Of a DNA stretch of 64,000 nucleotides, positions 4,193 to 14,553 are shown in pieces (position 1 is the stretch's first letter; each line of letters opens with the position of its first letter). The notes under the pieces were generated by a model. It was not told the DNA's origin. It saw nothing but the letters and a program-made list of their open reading frames with translations, and did no database searches. A program made the translations under genes and the position numbers. The stretch is from an uncultured delta proteobacterium. GTDB lineage: Bacteria; Desulfobacterota; Desulfomonilia; Desulfomonilales; Desulfomonilaceae. Location of the stretch: contig CAWBKB010000001.1 in NCBI GenBank assembly GCA_963789265.1, positions 1,728,001 through 1,792,000 on the forward strand, read 5' to 3'.

Positions 4193-5377
4193 TTATTCCA
4201 ACCCAATTTCTTGATCCGTGAGATAACAGGCCGGGTCCGGTGCCCACACATCTCCGAAGATAGCTTCCGCCCGAACTCTGAAGTTGCCTCCGCAGATGTC
4301 CAACCAGCGGCACCGGGCACAACGCCCTTTCACGTGCCTTTTCTTTTCTTTGAGTTTCATCAACAGCTCGTCGGATGGGTCCGTCCAAATCTTGCTGAAC
4401 GGGCGCTGGCGAACATTTCCAAACGAGTGGTGCCGCCAAAATTGGTCCGCGTGAACAGCTCCGTCCCAGGACACGCAGCCGATGCCTCGGCCGGAATTGT
4501 TGCCCTCGTTCATCTCAAGGAGTTGCAATACTTCCGCGGCTCGCTTCGGATCTTCTTTTGTCAAACGGAGGTACGTGTACGGGCCGTCTGCATGATTGTC
4601 CACAGTAAGGACTTCCACCGGCTGCCCCTTTTCGTGAAGCATTCTGGTGCGATCCAGGATTAGATCCACCACTTCTCTGGTCCGCTCGTGATCGAGGTCT
4701 TCGTTGACGAGTTCCGTGCCCCGGCCGGCATACACCAGATGATAGAAACAGATCCTCGGGATCCCTTTTTCTTCCACAAGATCGAAGATCCCTGGAATAT
4801 CCTGGATATTGCGCTTGTTGATGGTGAACCTCAACCCCACCTTCAAGCCTACAGCCTGGCAGTTCTTGATTGCCGCCATGACTCGCGAAAATGTGCCTGG
4901 AATGCCTCTAAATGCATCGTGGACTTCTTGAAGGCCGTCCAGACTAATTCCCACATACGACAAACCGATATCTTTGAGCTTTTCAGCCAGAGCAGGGGTG
5001 ATGAGAGTGCCGTTCGTGGAAAGGACCGCTCTCCTGCCTTGCTGCGCCGCGTATCTGATCAAATCGAGGATGTCAGGGCGGATTAGGGGCTCTCCGCCTG
5101 AAAAAAGAATCACCGGAGACCCGAATCGGGCGAGGTCGTCAATCAGGCTCTTCCCCTCTTCAAACGAGAGTTCACCGCTGTACCCGCGGTCCTCGGACTG
5201 GGAATAGCAATGAACGCATCGGAGGTTGCAGCGACGGGTCACGTTCCATACTACGACCGGCTTTTTATCGATGGAGAACTGCAGCAGGTGAGAGGGGAGA
5301 TCTTCGGACCGGCGTGCGTAGCGCAAAGGATCGGAGGCTTCTACCGCGCCGCAATAAAGTTTTGAAATTCCAATCAT
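4193..5377 (-). CDS. ahbC: Radical SAM/SPASM 12,18-didecarboxysiroheme deacetylase (alternative haem biosynthesis)
   Basis: N-terminus MIGISKLYCG..DPLRY; CNLRCVHC radical SAM motif; SPASM cysteines CARCRWLDICGG and DPACY. Confidence 0.85.
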   Translation of the reverse strand: MIGISKLYCGAVEASDPLRYARRSEDLPSHLLQFSIDKKPVVVWNVTRRCNLRCVHCYSQSEDRGYSGELSFEEGKSLIDDLARFGSPVILFSGGEPLIRPDILDLIRYAAQQGRRAVLSTNGTLITPALAEKLKDIGLSYVGISLDGLQEVHDAFRGIPGTFSRVMAAIKNCQAVGLKVGLRFTINKRNIQDIPGIFDLVEEKGIPRICFYHLVYAGRGTELVNEDLDHERTREVVDLILDRTRMLHEKGQPVEVLTVDNHADGPYTYLRLTKEDPKRAAEVLQLLEMNEGNNSGRGIGCVSWDGAVHADQFWRHHSFGNVRQRPFSKIWTDPSDELLMKLKEKKRHVKGRCARCRWLDICGGNFRVRAEAIFGDVWAPDPACYLTDQEIGLE

Positions 5378-5462
5378 ACGGGACCTCATGTGGGAGACTT
5401 ATAAGTAAGGATAACGCGTACAATAATGACTTGCAACCAAAGCAAGTGAATGGAATCAGTAC

Positions 5463-5491
5463 TTGACACTTGTGATTTTAGATACTATAAC
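5463..5491 (+). promoter_or_regulatory. Sigma70 promoter of marR (probably leaderless) with overlapping operator
   Basis: TTGACA-17 nt-TATAAC. ATG at 5498 lies at the expected +1. The motif TTTTAGATACTATAA (5476-5490) overlaps the -10. Confidence 0.7.
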
Positions 5492-5497
5492 CATCCC

Positions 5498-5946
5498 ATG
5501 TCCGTGGAATCGAGCAACCTGGCTGAACGGATTCGCCGCATTATCAACCGGCTGATTTTCTTGGAAAAGCGTAGCGTTATTCAGCAAGAGGGGGTGCGGC
5601 TCCACCCCTCGGAAATCCATTTGATGCAGGTCATTAAGGAACGTCCCGAGCTAAATGCCGGCGAGATGGCGCAACAGCTCGCAGTTAGCAACGGCGCGGT
5701 ATCCCAAACTTTGGCCCGACTTGAAAGAAAAGGAGTTATCACGAAGTCCCGAGATCCCTCCCTCAGAACAGAGTAACTGCGATGTTTACCGAGCCCGGAA
5801 GGATGGCTATACAGCGTTTTGAGGAGGAACGGGCCTCGTCTGTTAGGTCTTTCTCTAACTACCTTTCCAGTCTCTCCGAAGGGGAAATGAAACTGATCGA
5901 CAGCTTCCTTTCGCACATGGAAGAATTCCTCGCAGAGTTAGAGTAA
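5498..5946 (+). CDS. MarR family transcriptional regulator (frameshift near 5765, probably an assembly error)
   Basis: Winged HTH (AGEMAQQLAVSNGAVSQTLARLERKG). After ~5765 the alternative frame continues NRVTAMFTEPG...FLAELE* to 5946. Confidence 0.8.
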
Positions 5947-5963
5947 TTTTTTTTGCGTTGTGT

Positions 5964-5978
5964 TTATAGCATCTAAAA
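5964..5978. promoter_or_regulatory. Second copy (inverted) of the putative MarR operator, upstream of the MerB-like gene
   Basis: TTATAGCATCTAAAA has reverse complement TTTTAGATGCTATAA, 14/15 identical to 5476-5490. Confidence 0.6.
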
Positions 5979-6033
5979 CCAACATTATCATGTTTTCTGG
6001 ACTTAACCTCAAAAAGCAATGAAAGGAGCGAGC

Positions 6034-6777
6034 ATGCGTAACAAGCTGATGGCTGGGGTGTGGCGCTACATCCTGGGTGTTCCGCCGTTTCTCTGGGAAA
6101 AACAAATTCAGAGAGCTGTCCGCAAAGTGGAACGTTCCACTCGATTCATGACCGCGGAGCACAGGCTGGTTCATCACTACGTGGTCAAAGAGTTGCCGCG
6201 CTACAGTAAGCCCATGGCTCCGGACTTGGTGGCCCGGAGATTGAACCTAGATCCGGCGCGCACTGTGGAGATACTGGAGGACTTAGAGAGGCACCTGACC
6301 TTCGTGTACAGGGACAAGGAGGGAAAAGTGACCTGGGCTTATCCCGTGACGGTGGAAGAAACGCCCCATTCCATAACCTTCCATTCGGGAGAGGAGTTAT
6401 ACGCTGCTTGAGCGGTAGACGCGTTCGCGACGCCCTTCGTGCAGGGGCGACTCAGGGGTGACGCAGTGTCTGTGGGCGTGGTATCTGAATGCGCCCATTG
6501 CAAGCGAACCATGCGTATGGAGATCGACAGTGATATGAATTGCAGGTGTCAGGACGGGGATTGCAGCCCTATAATCTTCGTTCCTGAAGTGGATTTTCAA
6601 ACTCTGAAAGATCCAAGCATAATAGATTCGTTTTGAAAGGAGAGCGTTTTCTTCTGGTCAGAAGAACATGCTAGAGAATACCGTAGAGAGACTCACAGGG
6701 TGCGGGGCTCGTACTTCACGGCTCGACAAATAGCTTACTTGAATACGCGAATTCAGAGCGCTTTATTCGGATGGTAG
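6034..6777 (+). CDS. MerB (alkylmercury lyase)-like selenoprotein with two selenocysteines (U126, U201), 247 aa
   Basis: RBS AAGGAG. One frame with TGA at 6409 (LYAA-U-AVD vs MerB LYAWCALD) and 6634 (IDSF-U-KESVFF vs MerB RQSFCCHVHFF). AYPVT..TPH and SEC motifs. Ends at TAG 6777. Confidence 0.85.
6431..6449 (+). promoter_or_regulatory. SECIS-like hairpin for UGA 6409
   Basis: CGCCCTT-CGTGC-AGGGGCG; 26 nt separate the UGA from the loop, which has GU at positions 2-3. Confidence 0.65.
6643..6672 (+). promoter_or_regulatory. SECIS-like hairpin for UGA 6634
   Basis: AGCGT-T-TTCTTCT-GGTC-AGAAGAA-C-ATGCT; GGUC loop 19 nt after the UGA. Confidence 0.8.
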
Positions 6778-6916
6778 GTTTGCCGTGCCGGATCTGACGA
6801 AGAGGCTTTTGGAAATCGGTTACAGACATCTATGATGAATGAAATCATCATTGAGTTTGCGTCTGTCTTTCTCGGTCCCGGGCTCGGCCCGGGAACCAGG
6901 CATCCAGTGGGTACTC

Positions 6917-7369
6917 TCAGCCGGATTGGCCTGCTTGCAAGCTGCTGAAGAAATCCTCGAGAATCTTCGCGTGGTCAAAAGCCAGTGGGGTAGGGAGGGT
7001 CTGCCGGTCAAATAGGCCAATGTCCGCAGCGTCATCCGCGGCCTTGGGGACTCCGTTTGCCTGGCCGGTAAAAACTACGCTGAGCGTATGTTGGCGCGGG
7101 TCTCGATCGGGCGCGGAGTAGACCCCAAAAAGCTCCAGTCGCTCAACATCCAAACCGGTCTCCTCCTTCGCTTCCCGTAGCGCCGCGTGCTCCGCGGGCT
7201 CGCCGTAGTCAATAAAACCGCCGGGGATTGCCCAACCGTGCGGCGGATTCTTTCGTTTTATGAGCACAACGAATCGGCCGACCCGGATGATCACATCAGC
7301 CGCGGGTATAGGGTTTCTATACACAGTGACAAGCCGGCCGCAGTTGGGGCAGGTAACACCTTCTTTCAT
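6917..7369 (-). CDS. NUDIX hydrolase
   Basis: Nudix box GGFIDYGEPAEHAALREAKEETGL; RDPR and LAFDH motifs; start taken at MKEGVTCPNC. Confidence 0.9.
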   Translation of the reverse strand: MKEGVTCPNCGRLVTVYRNPIPAADVIIRVGRFVVLIKRKNPPHGWAIPGGFIDYGEPAEHAALREAKEETGLDVERLELFGVYSAPDRDPRQHTLSVVFTGQANGVPKAADDAADIGLFDRQTLPTPLAFDHAKILEDFFSSLQAGQSG

Positions 7370-12598: not shown

Positions 12599-13204
12599 TT
12601 ATTGACCTTCGGCTGCCGGAATTGTGGCATTAACGAGGGCTGCCACGTCACGAAAGAATTTGTCGAAAGAGGGACACCGCTCGCGGCAGAGCGAGAGATC
12701 CATGCGGCTCGCAAACTCTGATTGGTGCACTGACGGCGTATATTTCATACCCTGGCAAAAGCGCTTGAGCGTTCCCTTCCCACCCAAATTCTCGGGATTG
12801 TCCGGCGTTGCCGCGTCGACTGGTATGCCCATGAATCCTCTGAAAGACTCCAGGCACCCCAGAAACCACGCCTCGAATTCCTTCTTGGCCAGGACCACCG
12901 CTACGGGCAACTGAGCGGCCTGTTTCGCACGCCTGAGCAGCTCCGGCTCCAATTTCGCCGGGCAATCTTTGTCAGCATCGAGAAGGACCAGAATAGCTCC
13001 CACATTCTTTCTTGTCCTCATCGCAAGTTCGATGGCCTTTTCCAGCTCACCCTCATTGACAATCTTGTGGCGTTTTTGTCTGATAGGTTTTTGATCCGGG
13101 TACACTGTGTACACCTTCATAAACCGTAAGATTCTACTTAGCAGAACCGGAACAGACTTCACTTCGCCGTGCCCCTCGACAATTGCTACAATCGAGCGGC
13201 TCAT
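12599..13204 (-). CDS. DUF4276-like (TOPRIM-type) protein
   Basis: IVEGHGE, LLDADKDCP, KEFEAWFL, CPSFDKF; follows an ABC-type ATPase. Confidence 0.75.
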   Translation of the reverse strand: MSRSIVAIVEGHGEVKSVPVLLSRILRFMKVYTVYPDQKPIRQKRHKIVNEGELEKAIELAMRTRKNVGAILVLLDADKDCPAKLEPELLRRAKQAAQLPVAVVLAKKEFEAWFLGCLESFRGFMGIPVDAATPDNPENLGGKGTLKRFCQGMKYTPSVHQSEFASRMDLSLCRERCPSFDKFFRDVAALVNATIPAAEGQ

Positions 13205-13209
13205 CGTTA

Positions 13210-14442
13210 TCAAACCGTTTTGTCGACAAGAGATTCATCGGATGACCGAGGACCATGAGGTGAAATTTCCGGTGCCTCGTCGTCAGGGCGTATCTCATTC
13301 ATTTTCAGGAGTTCCCCGGGAGAGTACAAGCGCTCTCGTATAACGTCGCGGCTCGATTCAGAAAGGGGGGCAATGACGGTCTGCCCTTTCTTCAAATAAA
13401 CCATGCGAATCTGAGAATCTTCTAACTCCTTTTGGTCAAGGATTTCGGGGCTATGGGTAGTTATCAAAACCTGTTTTTCATTGGAGGCTCCCATAAGGAT
13501 CTCCATGATCATTTCAAGCAGGGCAGGGTGGACCGTAGCCTCCGGTTCCTCGATGCCCACAACCTTTGGCAACGGCTGCAGCACAGAGAGGGCTAAACCC
13601 AATACTCTCAAGGTACCGTCTGACATGTCCAGGGCATCAAATTCCACAGGCTCTGTCAAACCGATATCTTGGAAAAATAACAGCTTCTCTTTATTGTCAA
13701 CTGACTTAGTAGCTACCCTATGGATCCCTGGACAGGCTTCGGCAAGAATTTTGTTCAAAAACTGAACTACAGGAGGGTACAACCGGCTCCCTCTTTCATT
13801 GATTTGTTTCAAGACCGATGTTGCATTGCTCCCATCCCGTTTAAGAAGTAACCCCGAATCGGGAATTTGAAATTCGCGCAAACTCCTGGGCTCGATAGCG
13901 TAAACCCGCATAAAATCCAGGAAAAACCAGAGCTGTTGGAACTCTTCCACTCCGGCCACCAGCCGTAAGGCTAGATTGTTTGCTGAAATATGAGGTTTGA
14001 TGCCTGGGACAGATGTCGTGAACTGGCCTCTGTCCATCAGAAATTCGGATCTGCTCCCGCCGGGGCCTTCTATGATGCAAGACTCGTACGCCACGGAGAA
14101 AGGTCGTGAAATGTCTTCGACCCAAGTATCTATTTCAAACGTATATTCGGCGGTAACATCGGATGCTAGCTCAATTGAAAGACTGAATCTTATGCCAGGA
14201 TAAGGCGCACCGGACGTAAGGTCTTTCGCGCGATTCATGACGTGCGCCCAACCACCCCTTCGATTCAGAGCCACCTCCACAGAATCGGCCAGGCATTCTT
14301 GGACAAAAGCAAGCGCATCAATGAAGTTGCTCTTTCCTGACCCGTTGGTTCCAACGAAGACTGTAAATGGTTCAAGATCGACTCTAACGTCGGACAGACT
14401 TTTGAAGTTCAATATTTCAACCGACTTTATGCGGGGAATCAT
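13210..14442 (-). CDS. AAA_21/ABC-type ATPase
   Basis: NFKS, Walker A GTNGSGKS, signature MSDGT, Walker B IEEPE, TTHSP. Confidence 0.9.
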   Translation of the reverse strand: MIPRIKSVEILNFKSLSDVRVDLEPFTVFVGTNGSGKSNFIDALAFVQECLADSVEVALNRRGGWAHVMNRAKDLTSGAPYPGIRFSLSIELASDVTAEYTFEIDTWVEDISRPFSVAYESCIIEGPGGSRSEFLMDRGQFTTSVPGIKPHISANNLALRLVAGVEEFQQLWFFLDFMRVYAIEPRSLREFQIPDSGLLLKRDGSNATSVLKQINERGSRLYPPVVQFLNKILAEACPGIHRVATKSVDNKEKLLFFQDIGLTEPVEFDALDMSDGTLRVLGLALSVLQPLPKVVGIEEPEATVHPALLEMIMEILMGASNEKQVLITTHSPEILDQKELEDSQIRMVYLKKGQTVIAPLSESSRDVIRERLYSPGELLKMNEIRPDDEAPEISPHGPRSSDESLVDKTV

Positions 14443-14553
14443 ACAAACCACTCCATGAACTTATCCGTCGTGCTCAGACCTTGAGCCTTCTCAGGCAAGA
14501 TTATGCTTCTCCCGCGGTTGTGCAAGCTTTTCCGCGACCCGTGGAAACAGTAC

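Follow-up and report, generated by a model that had tools for sequence, protein, structure and literature searches.

A MerB-fold protein with selenocysteine predicted at both metal-binding cysteine positions in an uncultured deltaproteobacterium

Introduction

The organomercurial lyase MerB (EC 4.99.1.2; PDB 3F0O/3F0P and 1S6L; MerB2, PDB 5C17) carries two catalytic cysteines, Cys96 and Cys159, together with Asp99, which is the proton donor of the enzyme. In this study, a window of 64,000 nucleotides from an uncultured deltaproteobacterium of the Desulfomonilaceae (assembly GCA_963789265.1, contig CAWBKB010000001.1, positions 1,728,001 to 1,792,000 of the forward strand) was analysed, and a MerB-like gene at positions 6034-6777 of this window was found to have in-frame TGA codons in place of both catalytic cysteine codons. 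Our analysis indicated that the gene very probably encodes a genuine selenoprotein with a MerB fold and two selenocysteine (Sec) residues, which would act on a carbon-metal bond; its lyase activity and its substrate are predicted from the analogy with MerB. It would be unusual for an enzyme to use Sec for both of its metal-ligating nucleophiles and to have a separate in-frame selenocysteine insertion sequence (SECIS) for each of them.

MerB-like selenoproteins as such were already known. The accessible text of Haft & Gwadz (2022 preprint; 2023 J Bacteriol) described SaoL, which has a single Sec in a CU dipeptide at the Cys159-equivalent position and Cys at the first site, and which marks a nine-gene sao locus; SaoL was present in 45 of the 52 sao loci (about 0.3% of species). 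The entry "Organic mercuric lyase MerB2" appeared, without detail, among the predicted prokaryotic selenoproteins in the table of a 2020 review. In the accessible part of a 2026 review, 119 prokaryotic selenoprotein families or subfamilies were counted, the vast majority with a single Sec, and the only MerB-like entry there was the one-Sec SaoL. MerB was unmentioned in the main texts on deep-Sep and BSepDB, and no two-Sec MerB was found in the main texts of the literature searched. Within that literature, the two-Sec MerB-like form appears to be undescribed.

The window protein resembled SaoL, as far as SaoL is covered by the accessible text, in being a predicted MerB-like selenoprotein of anaerobes that is cut at UGA in databases and has Sec at the Cys159-equivalent position, but it differed in having two Sec residues and an F-U-K motif, with no CU dipeptide. 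The fold and the Pfam family were shared with MerB, as were the nucleophile, the Asp three residues further on, the second nucleophile ahead of a hydrophobic F/Y-F motif, and a third Cys. In contrast to MerB, both catalytic Cys are predicted to be Sec, an insertion of about 35 residues separates the two sites, and Lys occupies the position of Cys160. The surroundings also differed, since the gene was found without a merA/merR/merT/merP context and its carriers were anaerobes rather than plasmid- or transposon-borne resistance loci.

Two TGA codons within a single reading frame

Translation of positions 6034-6774 on the plus strand gave a single frame of 247 codons that ended at the stop codon TAG (6775-6777) and was interrupted solely by TGA at 6409-6411 and 6634-6636. 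When TGA was translated as U, these two codons became residues U126 and U201. The open reading frame (ORF) listing split the gene into two pieces of the same frame, 6019-6411 (130 amino acids) and 6439-6636 (65 amino acids). The first-pass annotation had proposed that these two pieces and an uncalled tail were one frame broken only by the two TGA codons, with the motifs LYAA-U-AVD at site 1 and DSF-U-KESVFF at site 2; the translation confirmed the frame, and both motifs were found exactly as proposed. The start Met of the homologues aligned with the ATG at 6034. The features of the coding region are as follows.

6022..6028 (+): ribosome-binding site AAAGGAG, 5 nucleotides ahead of the ATG at 6034, read from the sequence
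6034..6777 (+): coding sequence of the predicted 247-residue MerB-fold selenoprotein, including the TAG stop, from translation, Pfam, the AlphaFold2 model and Foldseek
6409..6411 (+): UGA-1, predicted Sec126, equivalent to MerB Cys96, from translation, HMMER alignment and locus comparison
6418..6420 (+): GAC, Asp129, equivalent to MerB Asp99, from HMMER alignment and locus comparison
6490..6492 (+): TGC, Cys153, the counterpart of the third conserved cysteine of MerB, which stays Cys, from the alignment to MerB2
6634..6636 (+): UGA-2, predicted Sec201, equivalent to MerB Cys159, from translation, HMMER alignment and locus comparison

The genome (6.06 Mb in nine contigs) contained the machinery for Sec insertion. 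The tRNA-Sec scored 71.3 bits, with the anticodon tca assigned by ARAGORN, and selA, selB and selD scored 594.5, 386.3 and 359.6 bits, respectively, all over their cut-offs. From the sequence evidence, we infer that the gene encodes a genuine selenoprotein with selenium inserted at both metal-binding cysteine positions. The selD gene itself (G000:C7:193442-194362, minus strand) had one in-frame TGA, as in the selenoprotein form of selenophosphate synthetase.

Contigs of short-read type from the public run X1 had no differences from the window over 6159-6572 and 6583-6785 and had TGA at both sites, which indicates that the two codons were not an assembly artefact, with the qualification that X1 is possibly the sample from which the window was assembled. 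A sequencing error at the TGA sites was rejected, given the identity of these contigs and the presence of TGA/TGA in all full-length loci described below.

Conservation of both TGA codons

The scan of species-representative genomes, in which 23 full-length aligned relatives served as the query, gave at least 335 relatives, and the metagenome scan gave at least 552 relatives on contigs; the best 80 of each were used for the locus analyses. TGA was found at both sites in all 93 full-length genome loci and all 80 metagenome loci (173/173). Among the genome loci, the 88 that could be parsed by the script were all TGA/TGA, and the seven unparsed ones comprised five TGA/TGA loci and two fragments. 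In 61 related genomes, all 14 full-length matches, with identities of 45-99%, contained exactly two TGA codons, and the same held for two TGA codons in 8/8 matches from a sample of 201 genomes drawn evenly from another class, that of the genome holding locus L098 (an uncultured Chloroflexia). As labelled, the carriers included Syntrophales-type and Desulfobacterales-type deltaproteobacteria, Chloroflexota, Acidobacteriota, Bacteroidota, Rokubacteria, Binatia and Omnitrophota. Cys instead of Sec was seen in rare relatives, at site 1 in P0016 and P0051 and at site 2 in P0028, and the alignment showed Cys at both sites in MerB and MerB2. Judged by these comparisons, the predicted two-Sec form is the norm of a large family across several phyla and not a rare variant.

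The annotation of the relatives in databases reflected the two codons. Of 63 database relatives, 24 ended exactly before site 1, 32 read Trp (W) at both sites, two had Cys at site 1 and ended before site 2, one had Ser/Cys, and four were partial. The pieces were named "hypothetical" or, for the N-terminal fragment P0064 at NCBI, "HTH domain-containing protein". The expectation that standard annotation would split or miss the gene was thus borne out.

These entries raise two alternatives to Sec insertion. The first, that no read-through takes place and that the locus is a pseudogene or yields only the 125-residue N-terminal product, with the conservation beyond it a chance result of recent decay, is very improbable. 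It would fit the 24 relatives that stop at the first TGA, and one remnant locus with TAA at site 2. Against it, the coding sequence 3′ of the TGA codons was conserved together with both codons in the full-length loci at 45-91% identity across phyla, synonymous sites were frozen exactly at the two hairpins described in the next section, and the Pfam MerB match required read-through. The remnant (L035; G014:C12:99799-99921) comprised 41 residues with 73% identity to residues 178-218, and with its TAA in place of the second TGA it resembled a decayed copy.

The second alternative, that TGA stands for tryptophan or some other standard amino acid under a code similar to code 4 or 25, is still less probable and can hardly be entertained. 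The 32 relatives with W at both sites would speak for it; however, all of these entries came from contigs of about 0.9-1.6 kb, for which a gene caller could have preferred code 4, and TGG was found at neither site in any of the 173 loci. The absence of TGG and the shortness of the contigs suggest that the W entries are TGA translated under another code. None of the W/W proteins had an exact or near-exact coding sequence among the 160 loci examined, the best match being 90%. Furthermore, TGA was the commonest stop codon of long ORFs in the window, where it ended 14 of the 32 ORFs of at least 250 amino acids, and the carrier phyla use the standard code.

The database protein P0055 (296 residues, on a metagenome contig of 945 nucleotides) combined the C-terminal part of the family with a GNAT acetyltransferase domain, which might reflect either a fusion or a read-through call made on so short a contig.

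Hairpins downstream of each UGA codon

A hairpin at SECIS distance after each UGA had been proposed in the first-pass annotation. Both were present in the window at the following positions.

6431..6449 (+): SECIS-like hairpin 1, a 7-base-pair stem with the loop CGUGC, beginning 19 nucleotides past UGA-1, over codons T133-R139
6643..6672 (+): SECIS-like hairpin 2, over codons S204-A213, from folding and locus comparison

Hairpin 2 consisted of a 5-base-pair lower stem (6643-6647/6668-6672) and a 7-base-pair upper stem (6649-6655/6660-6666) closed by the loop GGUC (6656-6659), and the upper stem began 12 nucleotides past UGA-2. The GGUC loop presumably resembles the loop of the SECIS of E. coli fdhF. 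RNAalifold analysis of 79 non-identical loci gave a 6-base-pair stem with the loop CGUGC at columns 24-40 past UGA-1, and a 7-base-pair stem with the loop GGUC, plus the lower stem, at columns 16-33 past UGA-2. Both stems were kept in all 79 loci, and the only variation was the change of U-A to U-G.

The codons of P134, F135, V136, G138, F206, F207 and E210 were identical in 79/79 loci, with an entropy of 0 bits. Outside the hairpins, the codon entropy averaged 1.44 bits with a minimum of 0.55 bits (49 conserved residues), the measure being restricted to positions at which 90% or more of the loci had the same residue. Because the stems lie inside the coding sequence and the synonymous sites there are frozen, the pattern points to selection on the RNA and not on the protein. 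In a joint alignment with a paralogous family, that of the second gene described below, hairpin 2 was paired in 238/238 cells; two of its seven pairs were C-G in the paralogous family and U-A here. The covariation score of hairpin 2 was reached by none of 500 shuffles, and sliding the partner lowered the pairing to 56-68%. The compensatory changes were single events between two families and are hence supportive, not statistical proof. The significance of the hairpins comes only from such comparisons across loci.

The runs X2, X4 and X8 contained only relatives or short parts of the region, and X1 alone was used for the comparison at the TGA sites. Contigs from other organisms in X2, X4 and X8 reached at least 85% likeness to the window solely at 6402-6450 and 6641-6681. 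The limitation of these matches to the hairpin stretches fits conservation at the nucleotide level there.

The MerB fold and the active-site residues

The read-through protein matched the Pfam MerB family (PF03243) with 55.2 bits against a cut-off of 27 (E 9.3e-15). The match extended from residue 106 to 239, covered profile positions 2-123 of 126 and crossed both TGA codons, and it was obtained only when the frame was read through. The AlphaFold2 model, for which the 23 full-length relatives were the input, had a mean predicted local distance difference test score (pLDDT) of 89.2 and a predicted template modelling score (pTM) of 0.87. When the model was compared with the PDB by Foldseek, the best 11 matches were all MerB or MerB2 (E 4.5e-11 to 2e-6, probability 1.00), with target template modelling scores of up to 0.81 and sequence identities of 17-20%. 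Beyond MerB and MerB2, only weak partial matches to winged-helix regulators were found.

In the HMMER alignments, the C and the D of the MerB motif LYAWCALD were matched by U126 and D129, respectively, and the C of the TCK motif of MerB2 by U201. The TCK-type position of MerB2 was equated with Cys159 in the accessible text of the SaoL paper (Haft & Gwadz). The equivalences to MerB Cys96, Asp99 and Cys159 drawn in the first-pass annotation were accordingly recovered by alignment as U126, D129 and U201. The alignment to MerB2 also placed C153 on the conserved Cys of the next strand, which we take to be Cys117 in the numbering of MerB. Asp129 was kept in 79/79 non-identical loci and Cys153 in 78/79, and a second count gave 85/85 loci for each. 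A literal Cys at the positions of Cys96 and Cys159 was not found in the window protein; Sec, a chemical analogue of Cys, is predicted at both, and the Asp99 equivalent was kept. As U201 was followed by Lys, the protein lacked the second, vicinal Cys found in MerB of the E. coli type. From the sequence alignments and the predicted model, the gene product is assigned as a MerB-fold protein with the active-site layout of MerB.

In a different reading, the protein would be a non-catalytic metal binder (a chaperone, store or sensor) that captures Hg(II) or another soft metal with its two selenolates and whose winged-helix-like N-terminal part might bind DNA. We consider this improbable. The name "HTH domain-containing protein" given to the fragment P0064 is in its favour, as are the weak matches (E ~0.1) that Foldseek gave between the N-terminal ~85 residues and MarR-type regulators, and a near-irreversible bis-selenolate complex of Hg(II) would suit a trap better than a turnover enzyme. 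However, MerB shares the same N-terminal domain and is no regulator. Moreover, the proton donor Asp129 was kept without exception in both counts, the MerB core was conserved throughout, and two Sec insertions would be costly for a mere store.

A second two-Sec gene and the occurrence of HgcA

A Pfam MerB search of the genome gave only two MerB-like genes, both with two TGA codons. The second gene (P0066), which is located outside the window at G000:C1:710531-711235 on the minus strand (L117:1372-2076, minus strand), encodes 235 residues. It was similar to the window gene in its Pfam MerB score (59.7 bits), in the prediction of Sec at the same two catalytic positions, and in a site-2 hairpin with a GGUC loop in the same register, whereas the two proteins shared only 20% identity and P0066 had Glu where the window protein has Asp129. 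The two TGA codons of the P0066 family were kept in 17 places among the 61 related genomes, and its distant relatives (~31% identity) had no in-frame stop. P0066 scored below the NCBIfam cut-offs for SaoL and MerB. The presence of a second two-Sec gene suggests that the substitution of Sec for Cys at both catalytic sites took place repeatedly or long ago within this branch of the superfamily.

HgcA is the corrinoid protein of mercury methylation. The genome encoded HgcA (G000:C4:258989-259975, minus strand) with 468 bits against a cut-off of 275, and the organism is therefore a predicted mercury methylator, hgcB being outside the search. Among the 61 related genomes, HgcA was over the cut-off in 11 of the 14 that had the full-length gene, against 21 of the 47 that did not (one-sided Fisher p = 0.025, uncorrected for phylogeny). 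It was over the cut-off in 22 of 50 further carrier genomes from several phyla. The 201-genome class sample contained eight carriers of the family and 17 holders of HgcA, with five genomes having both; after removal of the chosen centre genome, HgcA was found in 4/7 carriers and 12/193 others (one-sided Fisher p = 8.5e-4, likewise uncorrected). These figures are suggestive of an enrichment of HgcA among the carriers. Since related genomes are not independent and the traits share a lifestyle, the co-occurrence is a lead and not a demonstration.

The proposed reaction and its substrate

In the proposed mechanism, the ribosome would decode UGA twice, and each event would be directed by its own SelB-binding hairpin inside the coding sequence. 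An organometal cation, by analogy with MerB most plausibly methylmercury or another organomercury compound, would be bound through its soft metal by the selenolates of Sec126 and Sec201. Asp129 would protonate the leaving carbon, as Asp99 does in MerB, so that a hydrocarbon is released, and the metal would stay on both Sec residues until it is passed to some acceptor. Compared with thiolates, selenolates show greater acidity and nucleophilicity and hold mercury more tightly. This tighter binding would favour the capture of a trace substrate and would make product release the problem, especially without MerA. The gene stands alone, often behind a regulator of the MarR or MerR family that may control it; its lineages are strictly or for the most part anaerobic, and many of them bear hgcA.

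If the protein is a two-Sec lyase, its substrate could also be other than mercury, namely an organoarsenical, organotin, organolead or organoselenium/tellurium compound; we regard this as a minority possibility, less likely than a mercury substrate yet appreciable. The lack of a mer operon nearby and of a MerA over the cut-off in the genome is compatible with such a substrate, and 28 of the 50 further carrier genomes had no HgcA over the cut-off. In the accessible text of Haft & Gwadz, it was argued that Sec at the metal site of SaoL makes the substrate range uncertain, and it was stated that MerB can bind other metals. On the other side, the full MerB triad of chalcogen, Asp and chalcogen was retained, and the carriers were enriched for HgcA in the class sample, with the reservation on phylogeny given above. 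To our knowledge, the protonolysis of the Hg-C bond is the only characterised activity of the MerB fold. A MerR-family regulator was located upstream in 13 of the 79 loci, which would also be in line with mercury, although the MerR family senses many signals.

Several results weigh against a two-Sec lyase of the kind proposed here. No MerA over the cut-off was found in the genome, the best score being 387.5 bits against 454.45, so that the usual route for taking Hg(II) off MerB is missing, and a product in which Hg(II) is bound by two selenolates would be expected to leave only with great difficulty. Shared ancestry, together with anaerobic lifestyles that use Sec, confounds the association with HgcA. 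The window protein scored below the NCBIfam cut-offs for MerB (NF033555 and NF009710; 42.8 bits against 200 and 46.4 against 193) and for SaoL (NF040728; 47.4 bits against 140), and its family was claimed by no NCBIfam model in the release of June 2026. As to the hairpins, the stems never vary within the family apart from the U-A to U-G change noted above, and the covariation comes solely from the comparison with the paralogue, with one event per pair. Single-sequence folding of the two 62-nucleotide stretches was no better than that of shuffles (z -0.12 and -0.62), and for the stretch at site 1 the minimum-energy fold differed from the conserved hairpin. No matching Rfam family was found, the scan of 5900-6900 (E <=10) giving six chance-level matches with a best E of 0.77, none of them to a SECIS family. 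Finally, the adjoining MarR gene was frameshifted in the window.

A broader proposal, which we offer only tentatively and which is more likely wrong than right, is that the two-Sec family and the two-Sec paralogue together represent a methylmercury demethylase, independent of the mer operon, of anaerobic and often hgcA-bearing bacteria. If so, the di-selenolate site would open methylmercury at the trace levels of anoxic sediments to cleavage by methylators and their neighbours. In anoxic soils and sediments, the net amount of methylmercury is set by demethylation no less than by methylation. Protein-based surveys of merB would miss the family because gene callers cut or split it at UGA. In the accessible part of a 2021 review, the selective pressure behind MerB was described as unclear, and it was said that study is still needed of what MerB homologues do in an anaerobe capable of both methylation and demethylation.

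The upstream region and the neighbouring genes

Two features were located directly upstream of the coding sequence.

5450..5946 (+): MarR-family regulator gene in two frames, 5450-5776 and 5782-5946, with a Pfam MarR score of 43.7 bits on 5450-5773
5963..5991 (+): match to a sigma-70-like promoter, TTTATA-17-TATCAT, located after the MarR stop and ahead of the gene start, by consensus match only

The region 5300-7100 contained ten sigma-70-like sites against a shuffle mean of 1.4. The MarR regulator that had been noted upstream was present on the same strand, but it was not intact in this window. Compared with the intact 149-residue orthologue in L022, an orthologous locus with 91% identity, one A was missing near 5766, and the frameshift could be either genuine or due to a sequencing error. 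An intact MarR gene occupied the same upstream position in 15 of the 79 non-identical loci and a MerR-family regulator in 13, which gives 28 loci in addition to the window with its broken MarR gene, and no other neighbouring gene recurred in more than seven of them.

By Pfam, the neighbours in the window were a xylose-isomerase-like protein, a radical SAM protein, MarR, NUDIX and GroEL. These families agree with the earlier statement that mer genes are lacking nearby, as far as Pfam reaches, the own models of merT and merP not being used. Likewise, no ABC transporter or other sao-type neighbour was found in the Pfam scans of the flanking genes and of the 79 loci, in which the sao hidden Markov models were not used. 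The radical SAM protein (398 residues; 4193-5389, minus strand) was encoded by a gene transcribed in the opposite, divergent direction from the pair formed by the MarR and MerB-like genes, and a homologue was located nearby in only 3 of the 79 loci. Further downstream, at 12599-14451 on the minus strand, a DUF4276 protein (204 residues) and an AAA_21/AAA_15 ATPase (413 residues) were adjacent to each other, an arrangement reminiscent of defence-type ATPase pairs.

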